From the NCBI GenBank assembly GCA_965222175.1, contig OZ244938.1, forward strand, positions 2,486,932-2,550,931: a stretch of DNA of 64,000 bases, written 5' to 3'. A program made the position numbers and the translations under genes. This document shows positions 2,740-36,678 of the stretch, piece after piece. The stretch's first letter is position 1; every line of letters starts with the position of its first letter. This stretch comes from an uncultured Pseudohongiella sp. Its GTDB lineage: Bacteria > Pseudomonadota > Gammaproteobacteria > Pseudomonadales > Pseudohongiellaceae. The notes beneath the pieces are model-generated. The model saw only the letters and a program-made list of their open reading frames with translations. It was not told where the DNA came from and searched no databases.

Positions 2740-4236
2740 CCCCTTAATGGTTCGGGGGCTACCATCGAAGATGGATACCTCAAGGTGGTATCGTGCACCA
2801 CCAATTCAAGTTTCATAATGGAGGCGTCTATGCAAGCAAACATAATCCATATCGGCCTGGATGTCGATGATACCAACTACCACGGTTCCGCCCTGGACAA
2901 ACACAGTGGCGAGTGCCTGTCCTTCAAATGCCGGCCCACACTCAAAGGTTTGCTAAGCCAGCTGAATAAGCTACAAAAACAGTTTCCTGGCACAGTCTTT
3001 CACTTGTGCTATGAAGCCTCCTATATCGGTTATACCCTGCAACGGGACTTGAGCAAACAAGGTTTCCACTGTGATGTCGTGGCACCTACCAGTATTCCCA
3101 GCCCCCGGGGCAAACAGATCAAGACCGACCGGATCGATGCGGCCCAACTGGTTCAGTTCTACGCCAATGGGTTACTGACCCTGGTTGGGGTTCCCGAGAC
3201 CGAACAGGAGCAGGACCGGGATCTGCTGCGCACGCGTAAACGCCTGGTCAAACATCAAGCAGAGCTGCGCTCTCACCTGCAGGCTTTATTGCGTCGTCAC
3301 GGCTTACACTACCGTGCTCAGACCGGTTACAAATCCCACTGGACCAAGTTGCACTACAGCTGGTTACGTCGAACGGTGGAAACGACAACAGGCAGCCTCA
3401 AAATCAGTCTCGACGTTCTCTTACGCCAACTGGGCACTACCGACCGGACGATTGCCGAATATGATCAACATATAGAGGCTTTAGCCAAATCGCCCCGCTA
3501 CGAGGAGGCTGTCAAAGCCCTGGTCTGCTACAAGGGCATCAAGAATCATTATGCCTTGACTCTGATCACTGAAATCGGCGATATCAAGCGTTTCCCTCAC
3601 CCGCGACAACTTGTGTCCTGGGCGGGTATGGATATCCGGGAATATTCCTCAGGGGGTAAACACAATCGATTCGGCATAACCAAACACGGCAACAAGTTCC
3701 TGCGCACCGCGCTGATTGAAGCTAACCAGCGGGGTTATCGGACCACTCGGATTACCAAGGACCTGAGCGCCAGGCGCAGTCATGTGGATGCGGAGCTGGT
3801 TAACATCGCTGATCGTTGTTTGCGTCGCTTACATAAAAAGGGAACACGCCTGTTGGATGCCGGCAAACACCCAAACAAGATCAAGGTCGCCTGCGCACGG
3901 GAGATGGCAGGGTTCATTTGGGAATCGTTGAACAAAGTGGCGGCTTGATGAAGAGTAAGAACCAGACTTCAACAAACTGAACGTAAACAGACACAATTAT
4001 CGAATGTCACTTGCCTGAGTGCATTGACTGATCTGAAGAAGTAAGACAGAGATTGGGAAGCCCACGGGTTTTTCTTTAGAACACCGACTTCTGGTTATAG
4101 ATCGTGGTAACCCCAAAACGGACAAATCTTAATGCGTTATCCAGTACGCGAATACGAGGATGTCAGTCCAAGGTCATAACTCTTTTAACGATCAGATCAA
4201 GGTACTCTCAGGTTGACATAGGGGGCGTCTATACGA
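2740..4236 (+). mobile_element. IS110-family insertion sequence (approximate limits), long non-coding 3' flank
   Basis: Contains an IS110/IS116/IS902-type transposase gene. It lies between a hairpin after the YHS gene and the start of the 130-bp repeat. A GAGGCGTCTAT motif occurs at both 2820 and 4222. Confidence 0.45.
2830..3948 (+). CDS. IS110 family transposase (DEDD-type)
   Basis: The N-terminus MQANIIHIGLDVDDTNYHGSALD matches the IS110 start (MxxxVGIDVaK). The C-terminal region is WAGMDIREYSSGGKHNRFGITKHGNKFLRTALIEAN. A GGAGG Shine-Dalgarno lies 5 nt upstream of the ATG at 2830. Confidence 0.85.
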   Translation: MQANIIHIGLDVDDTNYHGSALDKHSGECLSFKCRPTLKGLLSQLNKLQKQFPGTVFHLCYEASYIGYTLQRDLSKQGFHCDVVAPTSIPSPRGKQIKTDRIDAAQLVQFYANGLLTLVGVPETEQEQDRDLLRTRKRLVKHQAELRSHLQALLRRHGLHYRAQTGYKSHWTKLHYSWLRRTVETTTGSLKISLDVLLRQLGTTDRTIAEYDQHIEALAKSPRYEEAVKALVCYKGIKNHYALTLITEIGDIKRFPHPRQLVSWAGMDIREYSSGGKHNRFGITKHGNKFLRTALIEANQRGYRTTRITKDLSARRSHVDAELVNIADRCLRRLHKKGTRLLDAGKHPNKIKVACAREMAGFIWESLNKVAA

Positions 4237-4372
4237 AGAAGTACAAAAAGGTATCTCCGAACCCGGGCAATGTCCTGATGTGTGAATACTCGGCTTCAGC
4301 AATTCATGGAAACAGGTTCAAATCTGCAGAAGATCCCAGGATAGTCCCTTTTGGTTGGCCCTAAGGTAATGA
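4237..4372 (+). repeat. Copy A of ~130 bp repeat (second copy at 15290..15427, ~85% identical, same orientation)
   Basis: Direct alignment: gaagtacaa..tatctccgaacccgggcaatgtcc(t/a)gatgtgtgaata..gcttcag(c/t)aattcatggaaacag..cagaagatccca..ttggtt.gcc..aaggt. Confidence 0.8.
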
Positions 4373-4375
4373 AAA

Positions 4376-4978
4376 TCAGCACTCATACCAGTGTCCAATC
4401 GAGTGGTGTTTGCCGTTGCGTGCGAATACCCCATGAAATCTTGTCAGGTTGACTCTCGGCTTGGGTACCAGGGCCGCGAGTCTGGCTATAAAATCCACCG
4501 GTTCGAAGATCACATGGGTAGTGCCATTGCGGAATGGGGTCTTCAGCTCGTAGCGCACCTTGTCCGCGGGGGTGAATGACAGGCGCGGCTCGGCGACTGC
4601 GGGACGGGTGATGTAACGGCACAACCTCTCTACCTTGTCCACCAGCAGTGCGGTACTTTCCACCATGCGACGGGCGCCGCAGCTGGGGCGGAAGCCTCGT
4701 CTTTTGCAGGAGAAGGTCACCAGCTTTTCGCGGTGACAACTCTCACAGTGGACTCTGAGAAACCCGTGTTCCAGCCGGCAGCACTTCAGGTAGCCGGTGA
4801 ACTCCTGCTGCACGTAGTGAGGCACGGTTCTGCCTTCGGCCTTCAGGTGGGCGACGAACGCGGGGTAATACTGCTCGACAAGCGGATAGAGCAGTGTCGT
4901 TTCCGGCTGGTGGCACCGGCAGCGGCGCGGGGGTCCGGCGGCAGGAAGCCCGCCGGGCGAGATGGCTGGCAGCGGCAC
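4376..4978 (-). pseudogene. IS91-family (rolling-circle, Y2) transposase remnant with internal deletion of the catalytic core
   Basis: 200 aa. The N-terminal zinc-binding region (HCESCHREKLVTFSCKRRGFRPSCGARRMVESTALLVD) is fused directly to a C-terminal segment typical of IS91 transposases (RLSFTPADKVRYELKTPFRNGTTHVIFEPVDFIARLAALVPKPRVNLTRFHGVFA). The ~200 aa HUH/Y2 middle is absent. Confidence 0.6.
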
Positions 4979-5266
4979 GTCGAGGTCCCTTTCGACTGGG
5001 TGTTATTGCCAGAGTAGTTTGTAACAGCGTAACTGGCGCTGAATGTTGGTTTTTTCCTGGAACGCCGGTATCAGGCTGTCTGAATCTGCTTCGTTCGCGT
5101 CGCGGAGGTTTGAACTCAGGCGATAGTGGCTATATCCACGCCAGGTTCGGACACCGCCCTACTCTACCAATGCGCTGAAATGAGACGGTGATCAGTAGCC
5201 TCTTCATGCCAATATCAATCCACGCCTGACATTAACCTTACGTAAGCGTCCGGCCATCACGTCTTG

Positions 5267-6838
5267 CTATTCCGGTTGCCAGTTATGTGGCAATAGGTCA
5301 TTAATGCGACTGGCCTTCTGAGTCGGTAGCCTGGCCATGGCATCCTTCAGATAGACGTAGGGGTCAAGCCCGTTCATCCGGGCTGACTGAATAAGGCTCA
5401 TGACAGCGGCAGCACGCTGACCACTACGGAGCGATCCGGCGAACAACCAGTTGGAACGACCCAAGGCCCATGGGCGTATCTGATTCTCGACCCAGTTGTT
5501 GTCAATAGGCACCGCGCCATCCTCCAGGTAGCGAGTCAACGCGCGCCAGCGTTTCAGACTGTAATCGATAGCACGGGCTATGGCCGAACCCTCCGGCACC
5601 TTTTGCCGCTGCGCCAGCAGCCAGGTATGGAAGGCATCCATGAGTGGCCCAACTCGTTGCTGTCTTAGTCGATACCGTTGCTCGTCATCCAGATCCCTGG
5701 CCTGGCGCTCTATTTCGTACAGCTGACCGATGGTCTCCAGCGCGCTGGCCGCCAGGGTGCTCTTGTTGGTGGCATGCAGGTCAAAGAACTTGCGACGGGC
5801 ATGGGCCATACACCCGATCTCGGTGATGCCCTGACCAAAGCCTGCCTTGTAGCCGCTGTAATCGTCGCACACCAGCTTGCCCTGCCAGTCGCCCAGGAAG
5901 ACCCGGGCATGGTCCCCGGCACGGCTCGGGGCGAAGTCATAGACCACGGCCCGGGTCTCCGCATTGGAGGTGGTGCAGTAGGCCCAGATATAGGCGCGGT
6001 GGGTTTTCTTCTTGCCCGGCGACAGCATCGGCACCGGGGTCTCGTCGGCATGAACCACCGAGTGGCTCAGGATGGTCTCGCGTAAGGCATCCGCCAGGGG
6101 CTGCAACCCCACGCCGCAGCGGCCTACCCATTCGGCCAGCGTGGAACGGGGAATGGCCAGTCCGGCACGCTCAAAGATCTTTTCCTGACGATACAGCGGC
6201 AGGTGGTCGGCGTACTTGGCCACCAACACCTGTGCCAGCAGGCCGGTGGTAGGCAGCCCTTTGTCGATCACGTGAGGCGGCACCGGGGCCTGCACCAACG
6301 TTTCGCAGTCTTTGCACACCCACTTGCCGCGGACGTGCCGTTCAACGGTAAACTCTCCTGGCGTATAGTCCAGCTTCTCACTGATCTCTTCACCGATACG
6401 GGTGAGCTGGCAGCCGCACTGACACTGGGTCGTGTCAGGCTCGTGTTCGATCAGTTTGCGTGGTAACCCGGGTGGCAACGGCACACGCTTGGGTTGCTGT
6501 TTCGATTTAGGCTGTGGGGGATGGATCTTCGCCGCTTCCAGTTCCGCCTCAATGCCACCCAGGTCGGCATCAACAATGTCTTCAAGCAGGGTGCGTTGCA
6601 GAACGTTCAGTTTTTCGCTGTGCTTGCCAAAGCGATGGCGTTTGAGTAACGCCATCTCGTGAGTCAGTTTTGCATTGAGTGTTTCTAGAAAGCGGTTACG
6701 CTGGGTGAGGCGATCGTTGTGTTCAGTGCGATGTTGAAGTTTCTTATCCTGCTCGGCGAGGCGCGATAGCAACGAGGCGGTAAGGGCTCGTAATTGGTCT
6801 GCATCAAGCTGGCTGACGTCAGGCTGTGACATAGGCAA
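5267..6838 (-). CDS. tnpC: IS66 family transposase TnpC
   Basis: 523 aa. N-terminal leucine-zipper/coiled coil, a CxxC...CxxC zinc finger (CQCGCQ...CKDCE), and a DDE region typical of IS66 TnpC. Confidence 0.85.
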   Translation of the reverse strand: MPMSQPDVSQLDADQLRALTASLLSRLAEQDKKLQHRTEHNDRLTQRNRFLETLNAKLTHEMALLKRHRFGKHSEKLNVLQRTLLEDIVDADLGGIEAELEAAKIHPPQPKSKQQPKRVPLPPGLPRKLIEHEPDTTQCQCGCQLTRIGEEISEKLDYTPGEFTVERHVRGKWVCKDCETLVQAPVPPHVIDKGLPTTGLLAQVLVAKYADHLPLYRQEKIFERAGLAIPRSTLAEWVGRCGVGLQPLADALRETILSHSVVHADETPVPMLSPGKKKTHRAYIWAYCTTSNAETRAVVYDFAPSRAGDHARVFLGDWQGKLVCDDYSGYKAGFGQGITEIGCMAHARRKFFDLHATNKSTLAASALETIGQLYEIERQARDLDDEQRYRLRQQRVGPLMDAFHTWLLAQRQKVPEGSAIARAIDYSLKRWRALTRYLEDGAVPIDNNWVENQIRPWALGRSNWLFAGSLRSGQRAAAVMSLIQSARMNGLDPYVYLKDAMARLPTQKASRINDLLPHNWQPE

Positions 6839-6889
6839 AGTATGCCATTAATGGTCTGACGACGCGACTTCATCGTGCTGCCAGTTGGT

Positions 6890-7225
6890 CTACAAAGTCC
6901 GGATAACTCCCGCTTCACCCAGGCGCTGCCAGGGCAGCCCCTGGACCAAGGCCTGAAGCTGTTCCTCATCCACAACCAGGTGCTTCCCCCGCCAGGGTTC
7001 GGCCCAGTGAAACTTGCCCCGGTTCAGGCGTCGGGCAAACAGCCACAGTCCCAGCCCATCGTGCACCAGAATCTTTATCCGGTTGCTGCGCTTGTTGGTA
7101 AAGGCATAGGCACAGTGTGGTCTGGCACTACCGAACACCTGGACTACCCGGGCCAGAGCTTTGTCCGGCCCGGCACGCATGTCCAGCGGCTCGGTGGCCA
7201 GCCAGATCTCATCAATACGGATCAC
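6890..7225 (-). CDS. tnpB: IS66 family accessory protein TnpB (Orf2)
   Basis: 111 aa: MIRIDEIWLATEPLDMRAGPDKALARVV...ILVHDGLGLWLFARRL, characteristic IS66 Orf2. Confidence 0.8.
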   Translation of the reverse strand: MIRIDEIWLATEPLDMRAGPDKALARVVQVFGSARPHCAYAFTNKRSNRIKILVHDGLGLWLFARRLNRGKFHWAEPWRGKHLVVDEEQLQALVQGLPWQRLGEAGVIRTL

Positions 7226-7605
7226 TGCAACAGTTCACGCAGCAGCGCCAGACATCGCTCCGACTGAGACACTGGCCAGCTCACTTTGATCGATTGCTGA
7301 TGGAAGGGAATCTCCAGCTGGACACGCTCGTCCGTTCCGCTCCTCGGATTGGTTAGTGACGCTTGCACAGAGTTCACCGGTAATGCTACAAAAGCTGGCG
7401 AGATCGCCGGCAACGAATTCGCCTTGGCTTGACGAATCCACTTATGGACAAGGTTGGCATTGAGGTCGTGTTCCCGGGCAATCCTGGCAACGGATGCACC
7501 GGGTTCTTTGCAAGCTGCTACAATCTTGTGTTTGAAATCCGGAGCAAACCTTCGACGCTTAACAGGTGTGGCGAATACGCTTAACTCGTTCATGATAGTG
7601 TCCAC
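7222..7605 (-). CDS. tnpA: IS66 family TnpA (Orf1, HTH)
   Basis: 127 aa containing KRRRFAPDFKHKIVAACKEPGASVARIAREHDLNANLVHKWIRQ. GTG at 7605 or ATG at 7593. Its stop overlaps the tnpB start (ATGA). Confidence 0.75.
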   Translation of the reverse strand: MDTIMNELSVFATPVKRRRFAPDFKHKIVAACKEPGASVARIAREHDLNANLVHKWIRQAKANSLPAISPAFVALPVNSVQASLTNPRSGTDERVQLEIPFHQQSIKVSWPVSQSERCLALLRELLQ

Positions 7606-7627
7606 TTAAAAATAGGTGGACACTATC
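7594..7627 (-). promoter_or_regulatory. Perfect 12-bp-stem hairpin abutting the IS66 tnpA initiation codon
   Basis: gatagtgtccac-ttaaaaatag-gtggacactatc is directly 5' of the ATG (cat at 7591..7593 on plus). Confidence 0.5.
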
Positions 7628-8139
7628 GGCGGATCAGACTGGACTAGCAAGATGGGTTTGCCAGACGGTTACAACCTTACTAAGGCGGAAGCCGATCTTC
7701 TGATTGCCAACAACCTGGCAGCCTGCTGTTTGCACGCCAACTTATTGAGTCTATAAAATAAATCCTGGCTTCCAGGCTTCCTTCATAGACTCAAACGCAG
7801 TCTTTACCTCTGGAGGCGGTGCTATGTAAAGGGTTCTATATGCGTCCACCATGGGCAGTCAATTTATTTACGCTAAACCAAACACTTACTTCGCAATCCC
7901 CCACTCCCCTGTTGTTTACATAGCGAATTAATCAGCACGACAGATTAGTGCTGTCTGTCCCTCATTTGTTACTCCGAACCAAGCCAGGTCCATTGGCATT
8001 TTGACCCCTGCTAACTCGCGGGTGCAGGATGACTGCGATCGACTCCTTTCCGGGGCAATAACCATGAATCACTGAACGTTAATGACTTCGCCACTTAAAG
8101 CATTTACGTGTCTGCGCAGTTGACGCAAGTCACCTTGTG

Positions 8140-9546
8140 TTAACGATTATTGCTACTCTTCTCTCTTTCAGTTAAGCGGACCGAAAATTGCTCTGCGGGC
8201 TGCCAATGAAATGTTGCTCGAAATGGCGGGCCATCGGCGATTGCCTCAACTTTATGATTCATGGCAAGCATTTTGATGAAGATCGAACTCAATTTAATTG
8301 AAATTTGAGCGAAGGGACAGCTGTGATTACCCAGCCCAAAGGGTGAGAACTGATTCTTGGTGGGGTGTTGATGAATAAATCGACCTGGGTCAAAAATGAA
8401 TGGCTCGGCAAAGGACTCGGAAGATTTATGAGATTCCCACAAACATAAACGGACCAATGACCCTCGCGGAATGAAGAAACCTTCAAAGTTGATATCACGA
8501 TTGACAGATCTCATCAGCCTCTCGCTTTGATTCAACCGTAAGGTCTCCAACACAAAGGCTTCTTCTAACGAAACGCGCCCATCATGATCCACGGTATTTC
8601 CTGCGGCGATGCGCTCAAGTAGTGTGGGATTCTCTGCCGCGTATTTACTCAACCACCGAAACAACAGGCGCATATCGTAGCGACCCATTTCCACCATGTA
8701 TATCAGATTGCCCAGGCTGGTTTCGTCGAGGTCCCCAGCGCGGTACATTCTACCAATAATGCTCCGTTGCAGCCCTGACCCTTCGTTATCAATATGTTTT
8801 TTCAGCTGGTTGAGAAGATAGTCGCGAATGGTATTAAAGGTCCGCTTTTGCTTTTCTTCTGGAACCCATACCAGGCCATCAGGTCCCAATTCGTTGTACA
8901 TTTTTTCAAGTTTTTCAAAGTAATCCGATCCCGGTTGAGCACCAAAGAAAATATAAATCAACAATCGGTTGGCGATATTTTTCAGTGTTTGGATATACCG
9001 CTCTGGCGGGCATACATCACCTTTTTGCTGGGATTGATAGGCCGCCAATTCATCTGTGACGATTTTTTCAAGCAGTGTGGAATCCCTGGTGATGATCTGT
9101 GAATCAATACTTTTAAGAATCAATCGACGGTACTTCTTGTGATCCTCTCCCTGCATTCTGCGAAGAAAACCCTTGGGAAACAAAGATTCCAATTCCAACG
9201 ATTGAGGCCTCACGTCATTGGAGTGTTGGTCCAGAAAACGCCGGCACAACGGTAAACCCACTATACAAGTACAATACTTTCTACCCCAGATAGCCTTAAA
9301 TACCGGACCAATCCGCTGGGACTGCTTCAGTAAAAACTGTTGGTCGGACAGCTCCGCCAAGTTAAGTGCGACAAATCCGCCTGGCGGCAAACGCTTTTTT
9401 TGCCTCATCGCTTTGTAAGATACAGAGACAATAGGCCGCAAGCGGCTGTATTTGATTCGGCGTGTTATTTTTTCGATGATAACTGGTGGCGCAGACCACG
9501 CCAGTCGAAAAACATTATTGATTTTTTGTGATTCCATCAAGTTCAC
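8140..9546 (-). CDS. Cytochrome P450 (atypical I-helix and heme loop)
   Basis: 468 aa. Carries the ExxR (ETLR) and PERF-like (FDPGRF) motifs and a heme-thiolate loop FGLGNHSCPF. The I-helix reads MVEMGRYDM, lacking the usual acid-Thr pair. Local GC is about 45%. Its start overlaps the xdhB 3' end by about 30 nt. Confidence 0.7.
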   Translation of the reverse strand: MNLMESQKINNVFRLAWSAPPVIIEKITRRIKYSRLRPIVSVSYKAMRQKKRLPPGGFVALNLAELSDQQFLLKQSQRIGPVFKAIWGRKYCTCIVGLPLCRRFLDQHSNDVRPQSLELESLFPKGFLRRMQGEDHKKYRRLILKSIDSQIITRDSTLLEKIVTDELAAYQSQQKGDVCPPERYIQTLKNIANRLLIYIFFGAQPGSDYFEKLEKMYNELGPDGLVWVPEEKQKRTFNTIRDYLLNQLKKHIDNEGSGLQRSIIGRMYRAGDLDETSLGNLIYMVEMGRYDMRLLFRWLSKYAAENPTLLERIAAGNTVDHDGRVSLEEAFVLETLRLNQSERLMRSVNRDINFEGFFIPRGSLVRLCLWESHKSSESFAEPFIFDPGRFIHQHPTKNQFSPFGLGNHSCPFAQISIKLSSIFIKMLAMNHKVEAIADGPPFRATFHWQPAEQFSVRLTEREKSSNNR

Positions 9547-11830
9547 CTGACTGTAGAAAATCCGGGTACAAGGAAAGCAACACCCGCTCTGGCGTCATCG
9601 GAGACAGACTGACTTTACTGCGTGTGGGTTTATCATCATGTTGCTGCAACTTGAATGCGCTGATGGCCTGTTTCAGAGCAAAATAAGCGCCAATCCCGTA
9701 CATAAACGGCGGTTCGCCCACAGCTTTGCTACCAAATGGGCCGCTCCGCTTGCTGTCCGTTTCGAGAAACTTGATATCCATAACATCTGGCATGAAGTAA
9801 TTATCAGGTACTTTGTAGGTTGACAGACTGTCGGAGGCGAGCCTCCCTTCGTTATCGTAGCTCAACTCCTCCAAAGTGACCCAGCCGATACCCTGGGCAA
9901 GCCCCCCTTCCACCTGCCCAAGGTCAACACTGGGAATTAAGGGCCGCCCTAAATCATGCACTACCCTGGCGGAATCCAGAACATAACTCCCATTCAAACA
10001 ATCCACGGTCAGTTCAATCAGACTTACTCCGAATGCATAGTACTGGAAGGGACTGCCCTTGCCCGCCAGGTTATCAAAATGAATACCAGGTGAAGTATGG
10101 AAACCATGGGCCATCAATGGAACACGCGAGTAATAGGCCATCGACACCAGCTCCTGCCAACTGAGTTCGGTGTCGCTGCCATTGACCTGCACTCGTTCGT
10201 TAACGATGCTTATCGATTCCGGATTGGATGCAAAATGCCTGGCGGCAACGCCCTTTAATCCTGCGAGTATTTTTTTACAGGCAACTATCGTCGCGCCACC
10301 GTTTATGTCAGTGGTTGAACTTGCCGCGCTCGGCGAGATGTTTGCGATTCGGGACGTGTTGGTACTGTTGTAGCGAATCCGCTTTGCTGAGATACCCAAA
10401 GTTCGGGCCGCAATGGCAATCAGATTCGAGCTGATACCCTGCCCCATCTCAACGCCACCAGAGGCCAGCGCGACGGAACCATCTGTATAGACATGAATCA
10501 GACAACTGCCTTGATTAAGATAGGTTCTCGTGAAGCTGATACCAAAGCAAACAGGCATTAATGCCAGGCCTTTCTTTCGGCTTTTGTGAGCAGCATTAAA
10601 CACAGCCACGCGTTTTTTAGCACCCCGTAAATCAAAGCATTCCTTTGCCTCGCGCCACACTTTCTTTAAACGGCATTCGTTTATGGTCTGGCCATAATGG
10701 AAAAGATAACCGTCACTGATAAGATTTTGTTCTTGAATGAAGTCAGGGTCGACACCCATCTTTTCGGCAGCCGTGAATATAGCAGCCTCCAAAGCAAACA
10801 TGCCCTGCGGCCCGCCGAAACCTCTGAATGCCGTGCTCGGTGGCAGATTGGTACGACAAGGTGTACCTACTATATGAACGTTGGCAATGGCATAAGCGTT
10901 TGTTGAATGCAATATTGATCTTTCCAGGACCGCTGCCGACAAATCCATATAGGCTCCGGCATTCTGATAGTGGGTGACCTGATACGCCAGGATGGTACCG
11001 CGGTCGTCCAACCCTATTTTATAGTCCTGTTTATAAGGATGGCGTTTTCCGGTCATTCGCATGTCTTCTGCGCGATTCAACACCAGTTGCACGGGTTGCT
11101 GCAGATGATATGCAGCAAGGGCCGCCATGCAGCACCAGGGAGTAGCCTGACTTTCTTTACCACCAAAACCACCGCCAATGCGCCTGACATCAATTTCCAC
11201 AAGGTGCATGGGTATGCCCAGAACCTGTGCTATGTTTTTCTGCTCGGCAGAGGGGCTTTGGGTGGACGAGTACACTTTGAGTCGGCCATCCTCCTGTGGA
11301 ATCGCCCGGGCGCGATTGGTTTCCAGATACAAATGCTCCTGGCCACCAATTTCTATACTGCCCTCAACAACCGTCGAGCACATAGGCCAGGCGGCTTCAA
11401 CATCTCCCTTGCTGTAAACCCGTGGAGCCTGCAGTATCAAGCCCTGTTCGAACGCCACCCGGGGGCAGCTAACTACGTCCAGGGGCTCGGTCTCCAGTAG
11501 TATCCGCGCGGCTGCTTCTCGAGCCACACTTGCACTGGTAGCGACAACGAGCGCGATGGGTTGGCCTTGATACATCAGCTGCCTGTGCGCAAATAGGGGC
11601 TCATCCTGCATAAGTACACCAAGGTACCCGTTTCCGGGAATATCATCGAAGCAATACACTCCCTTGACTCCCGGCACAGCCAGGGCAGGGCTTATATTCA
11701 GTGCGGAGATAGTTCCGTGGGCGATGGGTGAACCGAACACGGCGGCATGCAGCATACCCTGTGGAGCAGGGCCGTCATCGACAAACTCTGCACTGCCGCT
11801 GACGTGGAGCCTGCTATCGTAATGCTTCAA
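9515..11830 (-). CDS. xdhB: Xanthine dehydrogenase family molybdopterin-binding subunit
   Basis: 771 aa. Contains a GGGFGGKE motif and aldehyde-oxidase/XDH Moco-binding domain signatures. Confidence 0.85.
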   Translation of the reverse strand: MKHYDSRLHVSGSAEFVDDGPAPQGMLHAAVFGSPIAHGTISALNISPALAVPGVKGVYCFDDIPGNGYLGVLMQDEPLFAHRQLMYQGQPIALVVATSASVAREAAARILLETEPLDVVSCPRVAFEQGLILQAPRVYSKGDVEAAWPMCSTVVEGSIEIGGQEHLYLETNRARAIPQEDGRLKVYSSTQSPSAEQKNIAQVLGIPMHLVEIDVRRIGGGFGGKESQATPWCCMAALAAYHLQQPVQLVLNRAEDMRMTGKRHPYKQDYKIGLDDRGTILAYQVTHYQNAGAYMDLSAAVLERSILHSTNAYAIANVHIVGTPCRTNLPPSTAFRGFGGPQGMFALEAAIFTAAEKMGVDPDFIQEQNLISDGYLFHYGQTINECRLKKVWREAKECFDLRGAKKRVAVFNAAHKSRKKGLALMPVCFGISFTRTYLNQGSCLIHVYTDGSVALASGGVEMGQGISSNLIAIAARTLGISAKRIRYNSTNTSRIANISPSAASSTTDINGGATIVACKKILAGLKGVAARHFASNPESISIVNERVQVNGSDTELSWQELVSMAYYSRVPLMAHGFHTSPGIHFDNLAGKGSPFQYYAFGVSLIELTVDCLNGSYVLDSARVVHDLGRPLIPSVDLGQVEGGLAQGIGWVTLEELSYDNEGRLASDSLSTYKVPDNYFMPDVMDIKFLETDSKRSGPFGSKAVGEPPFMYGIGAYFALKQAISAFKLQQHDDKPTRSKVSLSPMTPERVLLSLYPDFLQSGELDGITKNQ

Positions 11831-13391
11831 AGACGATATCCTCTGAAATATGCTCTGGAAACCCTCTCATAAAGTGGGCAAGCAACTGCTGGCGAACCAG
11901 CAACCGTTTGTAGTCGGCACTGCCACGAATATCGCTGATAGGTGCAATTTCCTTTTGAGCCCATGCAAGCGCTTCGAAAAGCAACTCAACATCCAGTTCT
12001 TTGTCCGTCAGGAATTGGCCAGTCTTATCCAGCAACAGCGGGATCTCAGCTACCCCGCCTACCGCCAGACGCGCAGATTTTATTCGTCGTTTGCCTTCCA
12101 GTTCAACGACTACGGCCGAATTAACCGTAGCGATGTCAAGGTGTGGGCGCTTTGAGATTTTCTGCCAACCCACAAAAGCGTTTATTGAGGGTTTGGGAAA
12201 TTGAATCGTGCGTAGAATTTCATTGTCAGTCTTGTTGATTCTTCGATAGCCCAGATAAAATTCGCGTAATGGCAATGACCGCTCTCCGTCATCCCCTTCC
12301 AGGCCCAGTTCCGCGCCAAGCGCCAGCATCAGGCAGGTAAGATCGCCGCTAGGCGAGGCATTGCAGAGGTTACCCGCTAAGGTAGCACGAATTCTTATGG
12401 GCCAACTGGCGATAAGTTCATTGTAAATCTGGATGTCCGGTATGGCATCTTGTACCAGCGGATCTCGGCCAAAGCTCTCAAAGCTCATTCGAGCATCCAC
12501 TATTAGCCAATTGTTTTCGTCCACAACGGCCGCAGCCGGCGCGGTACACTGGATTAAATCAAGAGCCATCGGTTGAGCATGAGCACCTTGCTCAAGAAAG
12601 AAGTTGGTCCCTCCGGCAACTCTGATGGCAGCCCCACCAGCAATGGGGACCGCATCCTTTCCGCGGGCATCATTAGGGAAACTGCTCTGCGAGAGTTCGA
12701 GCAGCCGTCTTTCAATGCCAAGAAAATACGCAGGTAAATCGCCGCGCTCACAGAGTGCCTCGATTCGGTCCACTCGCTGAACCAGATCACTCAGACTATC
12801 GGCGATGCGTTGACCAGCCTTTCGAATTGAATTGTAGCCGGTACAGCGACACAGGTTTCCAGATATTGCCTGGTTGAACCCATTGCGGTCCAGCGGCTGA
12901 CCAGGATCGGCAATCCATCCGGTTAGCGACATGATGAATCCGGGAGTACAATAACCACATTGTGTTCCACCACATTCAATCATGGCAGCTTGAACCGTGC
13001 TCAGCTGTTCACCCTCTGAATCTGAATCTTCCGGATCAACGCCCTTTACGCAAGTTGCATCCCTTGCGCCCCGTAAACCTTCAATGGTAACCAGGTGTTT
13101 TCCCTGCAAGTCACCGACGGGTAGCAAGCAGGATGTCATCGGCTGATAGTGCATGCCGCTTTTCACGGTATTCTTTTCAAGACTGGACTCCCCGGAATTA
13201 TCTGCCCAAGCTGACTCCAATTCGCCAACGAGCACGATGCAGGCACCACAGTCGCCTCCTCGGCAACCTTCTTTGGTGCCCGATAGGTGCCTTTGATCTC
13301 GAATAAAATCCAGGACAAGGGTTCCAGCTGGCACCTCTGCTGTGACTAGATCCGCGTTAAGTATCAACTGAATGGGGAGTTTTTTGCTCAT
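11814..13391 (-). CDS. xdhA: Xanthine dehydrogenase small subunit ([2Fe-2S] + FAD-binding)
   Basis: 525 aa. Ferredoxin-type cysteines (CRGGDCGAC) are followed by a second FeS motif (QCGYCTPG) and then a FAD-binding/CO dehydrogenase flavoprotein domain. Confidence 0.85.
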   Translation of the reverse strand: MSKKLPIQLILNADLVTAEVPAGTLVLDFIRDQRHLSGTKEGCRGGDCGACIVLVGELESAWADNSGESSLEKNTVKSGMHYQPMTSCLLPVGDLQGKHLVTIEGLRGARDATCVKGVDPEDSDSEGEQLSTVQAAMIECGGTQCGYCTPGFIMSLTGWIADPGQPLDRNGFNQAISGNLCRCTGYNSIRKAGQRIADSLSDLVQRVDRIEALCERGDLPAYFLGIERRLLELSQSSFPNDARGKDAVPIAGGAAIRVAGGTNFFLEQGAHAQPMALDLIQCTAPAAAVVDENNWLIVDARMSFESFGRDPLVQDAIPDIQIYNELIASWPIRIRATLAGNLCNASPSGDLTCLMLALGAELGLEGDDGERSLPLREFYLGYRRINKTDNEILRTIQFPKPSINAFVGWQKISKRPHLDIATVNSAVVVELEGKRRIKSARLAVGGVAEIPLLLDKTGQFLTDKELDVELLFEALAWAQKEIAPISDIRGSADYKRLLVRQQLLAHFMRGFPEHISEDIVFEALR

Positions 13392-13409
13392 CCTGACCCA
13401 ATACCTGCT

Positions 13410-14408
13410 TTACTTTAAGTTCAGCCTGTCAGCCTCTTTCAGAATTTGCGCAGCTATGCTTACTGCGATTTCCTCCGGAGAGTCGCTGTCGATGGACAAT
13501 CCCGCCGGGGCTGTTACTCGCTCCCATTCCTGAAGGTCAAAATTCATCGAGCAAAGGCCTTCCTGTATTTTTACTAATTTAGCGGGACTACCCATTACTC
13601 CGATATAAGGAAACGGACAACGAAGAATTCCGCTCAACGCATTGACATCATCGTGGTATGAAGGTGACAAGATCACGGCGAAGGTTTTTTCTGGATGATC
13701 GACCAGGCTAGCGCCTGCGGCGAAATTTTTGGAATTTAATATTCGCGGACCACGGGCCTGATTTTGAAAAGGCATGAGCGTAAACAGTCCTTCGCGTGGC
13801 TCAATGATGGTGACAACATAGTCGAGTAGCTCCATTTGCCTTGCCAGCGCCACACCGCAATGCCCGCCGCCAAAGATTGCAACCCTGCGTCGATTCAGCG
13901 TTGAAAGTTCAACTCGCCAACTGTCCGCCGATTCTTCAAAACAAATGCCATGATCGGATTCCAGACCGGGCTCATAGCACCACGAATCCGCTGTGATACT
14001 GAGCACGCCAGGATTGCCAGAGACCAGGCTGTCAGTAACTGACTCCACTACAGGCAATTGTGCGGGGCTTACTAATGCTAAAAGGTTTGATTGGCTGCCG
14101 CCGCAAATCAATCCAGAGGCATTTGAATCGTCAGTTTTGTGATGAACAAGTGTCTGTACCCGGGTCCTGAAAGACCCACTCGCCAGTGCATCACGACCGG
14201 TGCGAAGTAATTCTCTCTCCATACAGCCGCCACCAATCGTCCCAACCTGCACGCCGTTTTCCGTCAACAACAGCAAGCAACCCGCCTTACCCGGAGAGCC
14301 TTTGCTCGAGTCTGTTACCAAAATAAAGAAAACCCTGCGGTGCCCACTGAGTTCCGAGGCTAGACGTTTCCATATTTTCAGCATTCGGCGTACAACATCC
14401 TTGCGCAA
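13410..14408 (-). CDS. xdhC: XdhC/CoxI family molybdenum cofactor insertion accessory protein
   Basis: 332 aa in the XdhC family. Has a Rossmann-like VAIFGGGHCGVALARQ motif. TTG start. Confidence 0.75.
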   Translation of the reverse strand: MRKDVVRRMLKIWKRLASELSGHRRVFFILVTDSSKGSPGKAGCLLLLTENGVQVGTIGGGCMERELLRTGRDALASGSFRTRVQTLVHHKTDDSNASGLICGGSQSNLLALVSPAQLPVVESVTDSLVSGNPGVLSITADSWCYEPGLESDHGICFEESADSWRVELSTLNRRRVAIFGGGHCGVALARQMELLDYVVTIIEPREGLFTLMPFQNQARGPRILNSKNFAAGASLVDHPEKTFAVILSPSYHDDVNALSGILRCPFPYIGVMGSPAKLVKIQEGLCSMNFDLQEWERVTAPAGLSIDSDSPEEIAVSIAAQILKEADRLNLK

Positions 14409-15289
14409 GTCACTCGGTTATTTACTAAGGAACCTCTGAGCCTGTTGCATCGCTTCGATTTCACGCATACCTCTTTCTCGTACCTTCGTTGGTTGATGAA
14501 AAAGTTCTGCCTTGTTATACGACGTCTGATTCGAGTCGTGAGTTGCATTCGGTTCGTTCCTCGCTTTCCGCAGAAAACGCGTGAAAAAAACACTTGTCAG
14601 CAGCTCCATCGAGATTCTGTTGAGCATCGACATCTACCACCTCAGAGTCCTGATCGACCGCTTGCCAGAGATAACTGTACGCCACGGATTTACACAGCAA
14701 CTGGTCGACTGCGAGTATATCACCGAATCCTTTATGTCTTCGCTTCAGGCGTCTTGCATAAAGCAATCCAAACTTGGTATATAGCAGCCGGACGATCTCG
14801 TAACTCATTTAAATTCCACGCTTGACTGACAGACCTCCAATATCTCTGTGGCTCAGGTTGACTCGAAAACACAACCAGACTGCATGCAGGATAATTTCAG
14901 GCGGAAAGCGGTTTCGTTTGTAAATTTTACTGAGGTTCATGCCTCGATCATGGCAGATACCCAGTTAACTTGTCAGTGCCATTCCTCACACTTCTACAAG
15001 GCGGATGGCCACGCATTCTGCAACAATTCCCCGCCACCGGGGGGTGCAAAATCGGTCTGCAGAGTACTCAGGAATATTACGGAGGGAAATCTCCCGGTGA
15101 ACCACGACAAAACATCGACTATCGATGATTCATGTCACCTGAAGGCCGTTAATCCCTGCATCGGGAGACTGAAGCTGGAATGAGTACTTAATGTGTCGTT
15201 ACGGCCATTTGTTGAGAGCCTACGATAGAGGGGTTTTCATTATTTGAAGAACACTTACGGTATAAGACTATGTGCCGCTGGTGAGAACG

Positions 15290-15427
15290 CTTTTTGGGAA
15301 GTACAATTGTTATCTCCGAACCCGGGCAATGTCCAGATGTGTGAATAATCCGCTTCAGTAATTCATGGAAACAGTTCCAACTCGCCAGAAGATCCCAGAA
15401 AATCCACTTCTGGTTAGCCGCAAGGTG
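15290..15427 (+). repeat. Copy B of ~130 bp repeat (see 4237..4372)
   Basis: About 85% identity to copy A in direct orientation. It is followed by a perfect hairpin at 15440..15469. Confidence 0.8.
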
Positions 15428-22490: not shown

Positions 22491-22690
22491 GATTCAAGGA
22501 CTGTCTGAATAAGTATGGAAGTGCTCTGCGGGAATCTGCGGGGCATTACTGCAGGGCGTCGAGCGCCGGGAATGGCCATCGCCCTTGCCAGGCGCGGCAA
22601 CACCGCGGTAGTGCGCGACAGACTCCGATCGCCCCGGATGCACTGCGAAGGAGCGACCGGAACGACCAGTGTCTGATAGGGTAAGAGCGC
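22491..22690 (-). repeat. MITE-like repeat, degenerate copy (inverted relative to 36943..37232)
   Basis: Reverse-complement alignment with the 36.9 kb copy across tatggaagtgctctgcggga..ctgcagggcgtcgagcgccgggaatggccatcgcccttgccaggcgcggcaacaccgcgg..gcgcgacag. Confidence 0.75.
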
Positions 22691-22711: not shown

Positions 22712-24973
22712 TCACACCACCCCGCTTTCTGCGCCACCGATATTGAAATTGTAGCGTTTCAGCGGCAACTGGCGAACCCGGATTCCGGTGGCATCATAGA
22801 CCGCGTTGGCCAGGGCCGGAGCAATTCCGGGTGTCCCCGGTTCACCGGCACCACCGATAGCCTCGCCGCTGTTGATGACATGCGTCTCGATGACCGGCGC
22901 CTCGTCCATCCGCACCGCCTGGTAGTCGTGAAAGTTGCTCTGTACAACCGCGCCGTTTTCAATGGTGATTTCACCGTGCAACGCCGCTGTGAGACCGTAG
23001 ATAATACCGGATTCCAGTTGAGCGGCAATGCCGTCCGGAGAAATGGCGATACCGGCATCGATGGCGGCCACCACCCGGTCGACAGACACCTGGCCGTCGG
23101 CCACGGTGACTTCCACAACCTGGGCCACCAGCGAGCCGAAGGATTCCTGCAGGGAAATACCACGCCCCCGCCCTTCCCCAAGTGGTTGACCCCATTGCGC
23201 TTCCTCCGCTGCTCTGGTCAGCACCGCCAGGTGACGTGGGTGCTCCCGGAGCAGCTCGGCACGAAACTCGAAAGGGTCTTTACCCGCCGCGTGGGCAACC
23301 TCATCGATAAAGGATTCGGTAAAGAAGCCATGCTGGGAGTGATCGACGCTGCGCCAGGCACCGAAAGGTATATGGGTAGGACTGTTCACGTAGCCGATAT
23401 CCTGGGCCTCAACGGCGTAGGGAATGAGTGGAGCCTCGATGGGTTCATTCTTGTTGGTATAGGTATTTTCCCAGGCCAGGAGCCTGCCGGCATTATCCAA
23501 CGCGGCGCGAAAACGACTCTGGACCGCCGGCCGGTAAAAATCCTGGCGCACGTCTTCTTCCCTTGACCAGATAAGCTGCACCGGGCGACCCACGGACTGC
23601 GCCACGCGCGCTGCCTGAATGGCGTAGTCCGGAACAGCCTTGCGGCCAAAGCCACCGCCCATGGAATGGTTATGGAGCGTGACATTCGCCTCGTCCAGTT
23701 CAAGCGCCGCGGCCACCTGTCGGAGGAACCCCAGCGGATTCTGGCAACCTACCCAGATCTCAGCCTCACCGCCGCTCACCCGGGCCGTGGCATTCATCGG
23801 TTCCATGCAGGCGTGAGCCAGGTACGGTACGTGATAGTCGGCTTCCAGTACCCGGGCGGCACCGGCAAACTGCGACTCCAGGTCGCCCTGTACAATATCG
23901 TTTTCCCGGTCCCTGGCGGCGCTTATATCACGATCAAACTGGGCAAAAATGGCGTCACTGGATACCGTTTCGGTGGCGACATCACTCCAGCTGACCTGCA
24001 GGGCATCGAGGCCTTTTTTGGCCGACCAGTAACTGTCCGCTACCACGGCAATGGACTCCCCGGTCCGGTAGGCACCGACCATGGAGCTGGACGAACTGGA
24101 TGGCAGCCTGACTACATCCACGACACCATCGACCTGCCGTGCTGCACTGTCGTCGACGTCGGTTACGTTGCCACCGAATACCGGGGAACGCACCACCGTT
24201 GCATAGAGCATGTCGGGAAGCTGCACATCCAGCGCAAATTTCAGGGAGCCGTCAACTTTGGCCGGAATGTCACGGCGCGGCACATGCTGGCCGATTATCC
24301 TGAAGTCAGCAGGATCCTTCAGCGTCGGCGTATAGGAAGGCGTCATGCCGGCCACCGCGGTGGCAAACGCCGCATAAGGCGCCCTGTTCGCCGTTGCCTG
24401 ATGAACCAGGTGACTGTCTTCGGTCATGACCTCGGCAAACGGCACACCCCATTCGTCAGCGGCCGCCTGCCGCAACATCTGCCGGGTTGCCGCACCGGCA
24501 ACCCGCATGACATAGACACCGGTGGTGCGCACACTCATGCTGCCGCCGGTAATCTGCATATCCAGCGCGTCGGCGACCCGCATCATCAGTCCATCGACGG
24601 ACGGTACCATGATGTCCGGAAAATCCATCCCGGCAAACAGGTAGCCCCGCCCCAGTCCGTACTGGGCATACTCACCGATGGCCGGCGCCTCTTCAACGAC
24701 CAGATTGTCCCAGTCGGCATCGAGTTCTTCCGCCAGCATCTGGCCCAGTGCGGTATGCACCCCCTGGCCCATCTCCGCATGGGGGATGATGGCTGTTACC
24801 GTGTTGTCGCTGTCTATTTTTACGTAGGCATGAACCAGCTGGCCGCCCTCGCTGCCTACCAGGCCGCTGAGCTTCTCCGCCCGGTTCCCCGGTCGCATCG
24901 CCACACCGACCACCAGGCCTCCACCTGCTACCAGTCCGCTGGTGATAAAGGCACGTCTTGTCCACTTATGCAT
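22712..24973 (-). CDS. Aldehyde oxidase/XDH-family molybdopterin oxidoreductase large subunit (IorB-like), Tat signal
   Basis: 753 aa. N-terminus [25 protein letters not shown] (twin-arginine). Moco-binding domains follow. Confidence 0.8.
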
Positions 24974-25478
24974 GATCCACCTCCCTCATCGCGTTGGTGT
25001 ACAGTGGCTGGTCATGACTGGCGACCTGGCTGGTTGACCTGATCGCCTGGCGGATACGTCCGTACATGCCACAGCGGCAGACATTGCCGCGCATTGCCTG
25101 GTCTATTTCCGCATCGCTGGGGTTCGGATTGCTGGACAACAGCGCCGCCGCAGACATCAGCTGGCCTGACTGGCAGTAGCCGCATTGCGGTACCTGGTGA
25201 TCGATCCAGGCCTGTTGCAGCGGATGAAGCTGGTCAGGCGCCGACCCCAGCCCTTCAATAGTGGTCACCTGTCTACCGGCAACGCTGTCAATGGACCTGA
25301 CGCAGGACCGTACCGCCTGTCCATCAACATGGACGGTGCAGGCACCACACTGGGCGATACCACAGCCAAACTTGGTCCCGGTGAGCGCCAGTTGCTCCCG
25401 CAATACCCAAAGCAAAGGTTTAGACGGGTCGACGTCCACCGTTTGCTGGACGCCGTTTACCCAGAAAGTAGTACTCAT
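24966..25478 (-). CDS. (2Fe-2S)-binding small subunit (IorA-like)
   Basis: Contains [16 protein letters not shown] and QCGYCQSG motifs. Overlaps the downstream large-subunit gene. Confidence 0.8.
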
Positions 25479-25780
25479 CCTGTTCTCCATGTTCAAATTG
25501 GAACGATTCTTTAATCAGCTCATGCACCCGGTATTGCAGTGTACTGAGACGCGCCGACGGCTGATACGGATACTGACGGTGCGGAGCAACTGTCCGGAAC
25601 GACCGTTGGTATCGGCCGTTGGTATCGGCCGTTGGTATCGACTGCCGACGATCCTCGCTACCGGTCGACATGACATAATATGCATAATATGTCAGAATGT
25701 CTATCTTTAAGCGGAAATGGCAGTGTCCCGGTTCCCCAGGGACTTTTCACCAGGACATATCTCAAGGATAGTACCCACGC

Positions 25781-30393: not shown

Positions 30394-30578
30394 ATAAGGA
30401 ACCCCTGATTAATTGTGGAAATACTCTGGCTTTCAGACAAGTTCACTGACGAGGCGCCTAGCCGCCGGCACGCATCGGCCTGTCAAGGCAAGACAACGAT
30501 GACAGTGGTCTCGCCTGGAAGCCCCTTCGGGCGCGGCCTGTCGGGCAGAGCACTTCCATAATCAGTAAGAGGTTCCAC
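30394..30578 (+). repeat. MITE-like repeat, short copy (~185 bp) with imperfect TIRs
   Basis: aaggaacccctgattaattgtggaaatactctggctttcag...gagcacttccataatcagtaagaggttcc. Homologous to 36943..37232 with about 90 bp of internal deletion. Confidence 0.8.
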
Positions 30579-35487: not shown

Positions 35488-35763
35488 GTTGGCTGACCGG
35501 TGCCCGTCCGCCGGCTGCAGAGGTAGAGAAATTACAGAATTTGCAGGAAGCACGAAAGAAAGTGTAAAAAAAAAACCAGTGAGCGATGTGAATCAGGCGT
35601 TAGAGAACTCGGACGCCAGCCTGGACAATGCCGGCATCCCGACTGTTTGAACTGTCGAATTCAGTCATTCCGGGCAGCCAGAGCTACCCGGTACAAGAGC
35701 CTCGCCAGATTAAGAAATCTCTGCAAGCCGCTGGATGTCAAGGTGGCTGATCAAAGGTCCGGA

Positions 35764-36678
35764 CTAATTATCCCGGAGTCGAGATCGGATTCCTTTCCTG
35801 GCCTCGTCGATTTCCGATTTCAGGTCATCCCCGATTTCCTTACGCAATTCTGCAAGTAACGATTCCGTCGACTTTTTCATCTCATCCATTGTCGGGCCGG
35901 CCAGGCTGAATCCTGGCGCTTTTTCGATTGCACCGATGGTCCAGAAGTGCGCAGGGTCGGAATAAGAAGCCAGCGTTTCGAAAGGCAGTCGGAAGTATCC
36001 TCCGTCAGCCCATTCAGGACCCCAGGAATTTCTGACAATCCAGACCTTAGCCGGTATATCGTAGCCGACAAGCAGCATGGCATGGCCGCTTGCCGGTCGT
36101 CTGGCTCGCGTGCCGTCCACCGGCATGCTTCCGGTTCTGGCAGCCTCCTGGTAATACTCGCCGGGAATGTAAGTACCGAAAACGACCGGCAGCCCCACTG
36201 CCAGCGCAGCCATGGCCGAATTACCGAGTTCCGTGCGAGCGTATTGCACGGCTTCGTAACTCATCGCGTTCTGATAAGCCTGTTGAGACGGCATGGTGGC
36301 GGTCATCGCCGGATTGAATGGCCAGAGGCGCTCCTCGCAGGCGCCATAGGCCAGAACCGCAGCCATGGCATGATGGATGAAACTCCCGGTATCCTGGGAC
36401 TGGGTATCTGACATCCTGCGGGCATTGTAGTAGACAAACAGCCGCGACATATCAGTAACCCCACTGCCTGCCTTGCGTTGGTGATATTCCAGCGCTCCGA
36501 CAACGGCGTTGGCCGTACAGGAGTTGGTCTGGCCCTGATTCTCCACAGGCGAACAGAGCGATCGGAGATCCACTTTTTCCGGCACTGAACCCGGTGGCGC
36601 CACTAGCGCGGGGGCGGTGCTGGGCTTGGTTTCGAAAAGACAGCCATTGAGCGGATGTTCATTCCAGGCATCAGTCAT
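35764..36678 (-). CDS. Papain-like (C1 family) cysteine peptidase, no signal peptide
   Basis: Catalytic Cys context QGQTNSCTANA, His GHAMLLVGYD, and Asn/Trp NSWGPEWADGGYF. A coiled-coil-like C-terminal tail follows. Confidence 0.75.
   Translation of the reverse strand: MTDAWNEHPLNGCLFETKPSTAPALVAPPGSVPEKVDLRSLCSPVENQGQTNSCTANAVVGALEYHQRKAGSGVTDMSRLFVYYNARRMSDTQSQDTGSFIHHAMAAVLAYGACEERLWPFNPAMTATMPSQQAYQNAMSYEAVQYARTELGNSAMAALAVGLPVVFGTYIPGEYYQEAARTGSMPVDGTRARRPASGHAMLLVGYDIPAKVWIVRNSWGPEWADGGYFRLPFETLASYSDPAHFWTIGAIEKAPGFSLAGPTMDEMKKSTESLLAELRKEIGDDLKSEIDEARKGIRSRLRDN

Follow-up and report, generated by a model that had tools for sequence, protein, structure and literature searches.

The purine-catabolism operons most similar to the one described here are found in Verrucomicrobia. 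In all three that we examined (those of Coraliomargarita parva and of two others) the gene order is amidohydrolase-xdhC-xdhA-xdhB-PuuD, in which we read the amidohydrolase as a guanine deaminase, the xdh genes belong to a xanthine dehydrogenase (XDH), and the last gene encodes PuuD, a membrane cytochrome-c urate oxidase. The xdhB and puuD genes overlap or lie 17 nucleotides (nt) apart, and two of the three operons continue with genes of the allantoin pathway. PuuD is one of four known non-homologous urate oxidases, the others being Uox, HpxO and HpyO, and HpxO and HpyO show that urate oxidation can proceed by a monooxygenase mechanism (PMC4562309). Here we describe a small block of four genes, below called the cassette, in a 64,000-nt stretch of DNA from an uncultured Pseudohongiella sp., a marine gammaproteobacterium (contig OZ244938.1; the whole stretch, positions 1-64,000, is called the window, and all its coordinates are window-based). 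In the cassette, xdhC, xdhA and xdhB are followed directly by a gene for a cytochrome P450, which thus occupies the puuD position of the related operons. The cassette amounts to a purine operon that has a P450 in the place of the urate-oxidase gene and resides on a small mobile block; in the literature searched, neither an XDH-P450 pairing, nor an operon of xdhCAB and a P450 gene, nor the P450 family itself was found described, an absence there that is not proof of novelty.

The likeness of the cassette to the verrucomicrobial purine operons is threefold: they contain the closest XdhB proteins outside the cassette clade (61-64% identity), they begin their xdh genes with xdhC, and they carry a gene for a haem protein after xdhB. 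The differences lie in the nature of that haem protein, PuuD in Verrucomicrobia and a P450 here, and in the upstream amidohydrolase gene and (in two operons) the allantoin-pathway genes, neither of which the cassette has. A previous note made from the letters of the window (the original prediction) had described the xdhC-first order as unlike the usual one. The order itself was correctly read, and it is explained by the relatives, since it is C-A-B in all three of the examined verrucomicrobial operons of the cassette-like XDH clade. The known urate oxidases resemble the cassette P450 in a more limited way. Uox, HpxO, HpyO and PuuD are comparable with it in operon position and in expected substrate, the product of XDH, and have no sequence or fold relation to it.

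Open reading frame calls and Pfam placed the four genes co-directionally on the minus strand, in the order C-A-B-P450, where the original prediction had put them (frames 13410-14408, 11814-13391, 9515-11830 and 8140-9546). The xdhC frame is open from a TTG at 14408; its probable start, however, is the ATG at 14384, which has AAGGA 13 nt upstream and corresponds to the 324 amino acids (aa) at which homologues are called. The P450 frame already covers the stop codon of xdhB, TAA (9517-9515). For the P450, the ATG at 9537, which is preceded by AGGTGA, is the likely start, and the public gene call for this genome likewise gives a protein of 465 aa. The overlap between the two genes is 23 nt from this ATG, or 32 nt from a GTG at 9546, and the 23-nt overlap is also called in relatives. 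Translation of the P450 would begin within the terminal part of xdhB, and from the overlap we infer translational coupling. The original prediction, which had the xdhB stop about 30 nt inside the P450 gene and the two genes coupled, was thus right about the overlap. No Rfam family was found anywhere in the window, and so no molybdenum cofactor (Moco) riboswitch upstream of the operon; consensus scans for promoters and intrinsic terminators yielded no more sites than shuffled sequence.

Judged by their sequences, XdhC, XdhA and XdhB encode a complete molybdenum hydroxylase with an active site of the xanthine/hypoxanthine type. The full XDH layout is present, with a hammerhead domain and two domains for Moco binding in the large subunit, two [2Fe-2S] domains plus one for flavin adenine dinucleotide (FAD) in the small subunit, and a dedicated XdhC. 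XdhB matched human xanthine oxidoreductase and Rhodobacter capsulatus XdhB with E about 1e-152 and, in the alignment, keeps the equivalents of Gln767, Glu802, Arg880, Phe914, Phe1009, Thr1010 and Glu1261 (bovine numbering). Among them, Glu1261 is catalytic, Glu802 and Arg880 orient the purine, and Phe914 and Phe1009 form a sandwich. These active-site residues tell purine hydroxylases from aldehyde oxidases. Because Glu802 and Arg880 are retained, we rejected a reading of the enzyme as an aldehyde oxidase. The best solved match of XdhA was R. capsulatus XdhA (E = 1.5e-41), and the Fe-S part of the cassette protein contains two lineage-specific insertions that are absent from L007, an Opitutaceae metagenome-assembled genome (MAG), and from other lineages (L numbers denote related loci or contigs, P numbers family proteins). 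We considered these insertions as a docking site for the P450 and rejected the idea, as they are confined to the gammaproteobacterial clade. Overall, the enzyme resembles R. capsulatus-type XdhAB with XdhC in subunit and domain layout and in the catalytic and purine-binding residues kept by XdhB; it differs in its weakly similar XdhA with the two insertions, in the C-A-B gene order, in the appended P450 and in family-model scores below the cut-offs (given below).

The fourth gene encodes a divergent P450. Its score for Pfam PF00067 was 75.3 against a cut-off of 22.8, with the match covering the C-terminal third only, and the closest solved sequences were found at E about 1e-9. The fold assignment is nevertheless clear: an AlphaFold model (predicted local distance difference test score 86) matched P450 structures with a Foldseek probability of 1.00. 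The nearest PDB entries were CYP90B1 and CYP120A1, with a template modelling score of about 0.7, a root-mean-square deviation above 5 Å and 18-20% identity. The cassette P450 shares with them the P450 fold, a PPG-type N-terminal motif, the ExxR motif and the Cys loop; their substrates, sterols and retinoic acid, give no guidance for it. The loop around Cys407 reads FSPFGLGNHSCPF (FSPFGLGNHSC407PF, with His for the usual Arg), the ExxR motif is E331-T-L-R334 and the PERF-type motif is FDPGRF, and all three are invariant across 30 relatives. The I-helix, GNLIYMVEMGRYD, has Glu283-Met284 where most P450s have an acid followed by Thr, so that the usual acid-alcohol pair for O2 activation is missing; Glu-Met is found in most relatives and Glu-Thr in a minority. 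The sole Pfam family matched by the protein is p450, and no homology to a urate oxidase was seen. Of 1.84 billion cluster representatives, 468 belong to the family at E <= 1e-30, and members were seen in Verrucomicrobia, Nitrospirota, Alpha- and Gammaproteobacteria, Actinomycetota, Acidobacteriota, Gemmatimonadota and Planctomycetota.

Several lines of sequence evidence identify the block at 8067-14439 as a horizontally acquired four-gene operon, the affinity of its cargo (Verrucomicrobia) being unlike that of its host. Outside the cassette clade, the nearest relatives of XdhB, at 60-65% identity, are from Coraliomargarita, Pelagicoccus, Opitutaceae and Puniceicoccaceae, all Verrucomicrobia, whereas by RpsA the host is nearest to Pseudomonadales gammaproteobacteria, near Pseudohongiellaceae; both affinities come from an identity ranking and not from a full tree. 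The comparison of XdhB with a housekeeping gene, which the original prediction had suggested as a check, therefore came out in favour of acquisition. So did the composition: the block has 50.3% GC (45.6% in the P450 gene and 51-52% in the xdh genes) against 55.5% in the rest of the window, and it is the lowest-GC and most tetranucleotide-deviant 6.4-kb segment there, with 1.2% of sliding windows as low. The dip is real, then, and amounts to a gap of about 5 points; the values first claimed for it, 45-50% against 60%, were too far apart.

The same block was found by blastn in other genomes, with 95.8% identity in L001, 95.4% in L086, 88.8% in L006 and 85.8% in L002. The homology breaks off no more than a few dozen bases away from the first start codon and the last stop codon: it ends at 8067 in L001, L002, L086 and L101 and at 8138 in L006, and the margins common to other genomes are short, about 40-55 nt on the upstream side of xdhC and about 73 nt on the downstream side of the P450 gene. 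The surroundings vary. The cassette follows alaS-lysC-csrA-tRNA-Ser in L002 and tRNA-Leu in L006, and the contexts of these two and of the window differ on both sides. In L086, the nearest relative, the upstream flank is common with the window (an enoyl-CoA hydratase gene, a 130-bp repeat and an IS6 remnant), and the downstream flank departs from that of the window at position 8067. Since the upstream flank and the IS6 remnant are common to both, the acquisition predates the split of these two strains and is not recent. A search for the xdhC-xdhA-xdhB-P450 block in other genomes, also proposed at the outset, hence recovered it in relatives in differing contexts, with only the upstream side common with L086; the Opitutaceae MAG L007 has the identical operon order. 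The idea of an island is upheld by the deviant composition, the abutting IS6 remnant and nearby IS66 element, the differing contexts in L002, L006 and the window, and the verrucomicrobial XdhB in a Pseudomonadales host. All four genes had ratios of non-synonymous to synonymous substitution rates (dN/dS) of 0.12-0.26, with similar dS, so they are under purifying selection and evolve as one functional unit.

Two possible vehicles of the block were rejected. No tRNA gene is present in the window and no integrase was seen there, which speaks against a tRNA-targeted island at this locus, although relatives carry the block after tRNA-Ser or tRNA-Leu. A megablast search of the block against plasmids gave no match, and the window is chromosomal because it contains rpsA and a lapB-like gene. 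Two further observations concern related loci. In the gammaproteobacterial MAG L032 the cluster is present as an inverted duplication (3129-14879) joined inside the P450 gene, with xdhB in pieces, which may be either an assembly artefact or a real palindrome. A gene for a sulfite-oxidase-family molybdoenzyme (Oxidored_molyb) recurs upstream of the P450 gene in the Opitutaceae loci L014, L019 and L037, and L006 has such a gene downstream of its cassette (8243-9478).

To what extent the P450 is tied to XDH was assessed from the neighbourhoods of 104 loci with a family member at >= 35% identity. A purine-type XdhB gene was found on the strand of the P450 gene in 21 loci and an A-T or A-T-TE module (adenylation, thiolation and thioesterase domains) of a non-ribosomal peptide synthetase (NRPS) directly downstream of it in 72; 11 loci had both. 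The XDH-linked loci are diverse in structure. Split XdhA and XdhB followed by the P450 are encoded in the cassette and in L078 and L137, and a fused XdhAB followed by the P450 in L010, L029 and L028. In Nitrospirota (L063), a P450-A-T-XdhAB-XdhC cluster lies beside genes for an adenosine deaminase, an amidohydrolase and a PuuD-like protein, and in L139 the order P450-xdhA-xdhB-xdhC is found among ATP-grasp, FemAB-like, GNAT and PhyH genes. In the majority of these loci no other gene separates the P450 gene from the XDH genes, which it follows right after xdhB or, in L139, precedes right before xdhA. A trio of XDH, P450 and A-T-TE module is present in L015, L028, L078 and L137, and in Nitrospirota together with a polyketide synthase. 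The XDHs next to the P450 in other phyla keep the purine residues, the position of Thr1010 varying in some (Val in Nitrospirota, Met in L139).

The XDH partners stem from several different lineages. Identities are incongruent, being 56% for the P450 and 40% for XdhB in L139, and 43% for the P450 and 58% for XdhB in L137. In a neighbour-joining tree the XDH-linked P450s fall in separate clades, at least five in number, and XDH partners from different lineages are only 37-40% identical to each other. Both the incongruent identities and the number of clades show that the XDH-P450 pairing was assembled or kept many times. As to the P450 itself, the cassette clade differs at only 4 of the 79 columns conserved in NRPS-linked P450s, which argues for the same P450 chemistry in all contexts. 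Beyond the P450-NRPS pair itself, no conserved neighbours were found, the flanks consisting of transporter genes and the like.

Given that the pairing was assembled repeatedly in unrelated bacteria, both enzymes probably act on the same purine-like molecule. We tentatively favour, with somewhat less than even confidence, the reading that 8067-14439 is an acquired four-gene operon whose XDH and P450 oxidize one purine-type molecule in two steps. In the simplest scheme, XDH would hydroxylate the purine ring with water, so that hypoxanthine or xanthine becomes urate or something closely analogous, and the product of XDH would then be oxidized by the P450, which would use O2 or peroxide. The cassette would thereby carry out both steps of purine oxidation as a unit complete in itself, with the P450 in the gene slot of the urate oxidase; in other bacteria the oxidized purine may be joined to an amino acid by an A-T-TE NRPS module or by ATP-grasp/FemAB-like ligases. 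Gene content, the type of XDH active site, the overlap, the horizontal spread and the recurrence of the pairing are observed; that both enzymes share a substrate, in which order they act and where the P450 obtains its electrons is what we infer here. Two-step oxidation of an N-heterocycle or an aldehyde had been suggested by the original prediction; the former can now be narrowed to a purine, because of the purine residues kept and the pairing in several phyla, and the aldehyde is dropped.

A number of observations weigh against two-step purine oxidation. All three Xdh proteins scored below the cut-offs of the NCBIfam equivalog models (302.8 against 467 for TIGR02963, 91.8 against 161.6 for the XdhC model TIGR02964, and 754.9 against 849.5 for XdhB with TIGR02965), and we therefore speak of a purine-type XDH and do not assert xanthine as its exact substrate. 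We know of no P450 that oxidizes urate or xanthine. Genes for 5-hydroxyisourate hydrolase, 2-oxo-4-hydroxy-4-carboxy-5-ureidoimidazoline (OHCU) decarboxylase and allantoinase were not seen in the window, and tblastn found no homologue of PuuD, OHCU decarboxylase or allantoinase there. In Nitrospirota the PuuD-like gene stands alongside those for the P450 and XDH, which means that P450 and PuuD cannot simply replace each other. Together with the NRPS fusions described below, this coexistence is the chief objection to a plain urate-oxidase role. Two independent losses of XDH left the P450 in place, most of xdhCAB being deleted in L005 (9727-11357) and xdhB being frameshifted in L088 (4881-6962), both with an intact P450 gene; the P450 is thus useful without its neighbour. 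Finally, the commonest partner of the P450 family is not XDH but the NRPS module, and P0383 and P0397 are single polypeptides of about 1700 aa in which a condensation domain precedes the module (C-A-T-TE-P450) and the P450 domain is of the cassette family. The prevalence of NRPS partners and these fusions would fit a substrate attached to a carrier protein better than a free purine.

The best-surviving alternative starts from this last point. The cassette may be a remnant or a split part of a natural-product pathway, in which the P450 oxidizes a small amino acid on the NRPS carrier (or the product of the module), XDH tailors or supplies a purine-like partner, and the A-T-TE module is encoded elsewhere or has been lost. 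Besides the downstream modules and the fusions, this is favoured by the A domains, which retain the Asp that binds the alpha-amino group and have the specificity-code consensus DI[A/V]SITLVWK, which resembles codes for Gly, Cys or similarly small residues. The XDH-P450-A-T-TE trios, the ATP-grasp, FemAB-like, GNAT and PhyH genes around the pair in L139, and the 75 of 79 family-conserved columns retained by the cassette P450 are in line with it as well. Examples of known P450s that partner a stand-alone NRPS module and act on an amino acid bound to its carrier are NikQ (with NikP1) and NovI (with NovH). The likeness to these is at the level of the family, in which the P450 gene lies beside an A-T-TE module or is fused with it, whereas the window has no module (tblastn found no A-T-TE homologue in its 64 kb) and the cassette P450 is closest to eukaryote-like CYP90, CYP120 and CYP51 types. 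Nor is there an A-T-TE module within 10 kb of the cassette or P450 gene in L001, L006, L007, L010 and L029. Moreover, the cassette moves as exactly four genes under purifying selection, which suggests a self-sufficient unit, and an amino-acid substrate would leave the purine-specific Glu802 and Arg880 in every XDH partner unexplained. We consider a natural-product origin of the cassette unlikely on balance.

Bacterial P450s that use purine bases as co-substrates are known from cyclodipeptide pathways, where nucleobase-coupling enzymes of the guanitrypmycin/guatyromycine type have been described (PMC9401060, PMC11573659). They provide a precedent for a purine co-substrate with an amino-acid-derived partner. 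The cassette P450, however, is from an unrelated lineage, scoring 33.8 against a cut-off of 500 with the NCBIfam cyclodipeptide-associated model, and the guanitrypmycin-type enzymes partner cyclodipeptide synthases and not XDH or NRPS modules. Two-step purine oxidation can also be extended into a bolder proposal, which we regard as quite doubtful. The P450 would be a fifth non-homologous oxidizer of urate or of another purine in the puuD slot, possibly fed reductant or peroxide by XDH, such that hypoxanthine or xanthine and O2 would give 5-hydroxyisourate without a reductase; in relatives, an amino acid of the NRPS or ATP-grasp enzymes would capture the reactive product to yield a new class of purine-amino acid metabolites.

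It is very unlikely, in our estimate, that XDH serves the P450 without sharing a substrate with it, either by passing electrons through the Fe-S clusters and FAD of XdhA to the haem or by releasing H2O2 or superoxide at the FAD and so driving a peroxygenase, with no need for a ferredoxin or reductase. Such a gene was indeed said to be lacking nearby by the original prediction, and our pattern scan of 1-30 kb found ferredoxin-type Cys motifs inside XdhA only, although the scan missed the IorA-like [2Fe-2S] subunit at 24966-25496; nor do the related loci have a recurrent ferredoxin or reductase gene close to the P450. The overlapping genes suggest equal dosage, XDHs of differing lineages are interchangeable as would be expected of a generic source of electrons or peroxide, Glu-Met replaces acid-Thr in the I-helix of most members, and a purine-type active site is what a plain XDH would keep. 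Yet some members carry Glu-Thr, XDH is not nearby in most family members, the P450 outlasts the loss of the adjacent XDH in L005 and L088, and the XdhA insertions are lineage-specific, leaving no conserved docking feature. To our knowledge, no natural electron transfer from XDH to a P450 is known.

That there is no functional link, the XDH being an ordinary extra enzyme of purine catabolism and the P450 an unrelated passenger, is suggested by relatives in which each occurs without the other and by the shuffled gene order and insertion-sequence-filled flanks, but is highly improbable in view of same-strand adjacent pairing in at least five P450 clades with XDHs only distantly similar to each other, of a P450 family whose size (468 representatives) makes chance encounters with a purine XDH hardly to be expected, and of the conserved 23-nt overlap and equal dS across the four genes.

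The coordinates of the cassette and of the elements around it are collected in Table 1. The first 15 kb of the window are an insertion-sequence graveyard. The IS66 element, which the original prediction had placed on one side of the island, is complete and lies about 0.4 kb downstream of the cassette. It has 35-nt terminal inverted repeats (5242-5276 and 7638-7672, starting GTAAGCG) and is flanked by identical 8-bp copies of its target site, AACCTTAC, at 5234-5241 and 7673-7680; from the repeats and the duplication it is a simple insertion that looks recent. On the other side, what had been taken for an AT-rich gene-poor stretch at 14.4-15.3 kb turned out to be a decayed transposase gene of the IS6 family plus a gene fragment. 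The IS6 remnant had no Pfam match at 1e-5, and its tblastn matches were IS6-family transposases, of which the best, with 48.7% identity and E = 1e-33, lies on a plasmid of Halioglobus pacificus. The IS91-family transposase gene has lost its catalytic middle.

Table 1. Positions of the cassette, its genes and the surrounding elements in the window.
Feature	Positions	Strand	Description	Evidence
Cassette (shared block)	8067..14439	-	6.4 kb	blastn against other genomes
xdhC	13410..14384	-	Moco-insertion chaperone, 324 aa	Pfam XdhC_CoxI + XdhC_C
xdhA	11814..13391	-	small subunit, 525 aa	Pfam Fer2, Fer2_2, FAD_binding_5, CO_deh_flav_C (two [2Fe-2S] + FAD)
xdhB	9515..11830	-	molybdopterin subunit, 771 aa	Pfam Ald_Xan_dh_C, MoCoBD_1, MoCoBD_2
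Cytochrome P450	8140..9537	-	465 aa, divergent family	Pfam p450
IS110-family transposase gene	2785..3948			
130-bp direct repeat, copy A	4238..4367	+	83% identical to copy B	self-blastn
IS91-family transposase gene	4376..4978	-	internally deleted	Pfam Zn_Tnp_IS91 + C-terminal part only of Y2_Tnp
IS66 element	5242..7672	-	complete; tnpA 7222-7605, tnpB 6890-7225, tnpC 5267-6838	Pfam
IS6-family transposase gene	14440..14981	-	truncated, frameshifted; left end GGCACTG (~14981); abuts cassette	translation with internal stops
130-bp direct repeat, copy B	15298..15426	+		

The 130-bp repeat that had been proposed as a boundary exists as a pair in direct orientation. The pair brackets the whole mosaic of insertion sequences and cassette, and a further copy lies in L086 at 4058-4194; candidates for its nature are an old attachment (att) site, a miniature inverted-repeat transposable element and a repetitive extragenic palindrome. 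Just outside the IS6 end, a conserved coding fragment (...HAF...PPP...KS.CR...NLP...) is present on the plus strand at 14982-15183. The same fragment is found in L002 on the minus strand at 4000-4175, just after tRNA-Ser, which suggests an older shared flank of the cassette. The motif GTGACTTGCG occurs at both cassette ends in the window (8100-8140 and 14398-14420), with only 8 of its 10 positions conserved in L001 and L002, and may be a recombination or a regulatory site. We considered an integron-like cassette in view of this end motif and rejected it, as the motif does not fit attC core sites.

Elsewhere in the window, the minus strand at 22712-25496 encodes a second, unrelated pair of molybdenum hydroxylase subunits, an IorB-like Moco subunit of 753 aa and the IorA-like double [2Fe-2S] subunit of 176 aa mentioned above, with no FAD subunit. 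Extragenic repeats of 100-160 bp, belonging to several families, were found at 22504-22627, 30395-30546, 36945-37110, 37096-37219, 40280-40381 and 42300-42403; one type is also present in L001 (1-48) and L003 (1889-1962) and is thus common to related genomes. Among the repeats, at 34012-41987, lie genes for a Ser/Thr protein kinase, two paralogous cysteine proteases of the papain family and a trypsin-like protease, and a second patch of lower GC surrounds these kinase and protease genes (48% at 40-42 kb).

If XDH and the P450 share a substrate, the cassette would place a P450 in purine oxidation, possibly as a new solution to urate oxidation, a step for which four separate inventions are already known. 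If XDH feeds the P450, the pair would represent a natural redox partnership of a kind new for P450s. Either way, a P450 family of several hundred sequence clusters, spread over at least eight phyla and without an assigned function, is seen to be wired to purine-type XDH and to single NRPS modules. Taken jointly, the two kinds of partner point towards purine-amino acid chemistry still to be discovered in bacteria of the sea and of fresh water. With its four genes in 6.4 kb the cassette is small, which makes the hypothesis directly testable.

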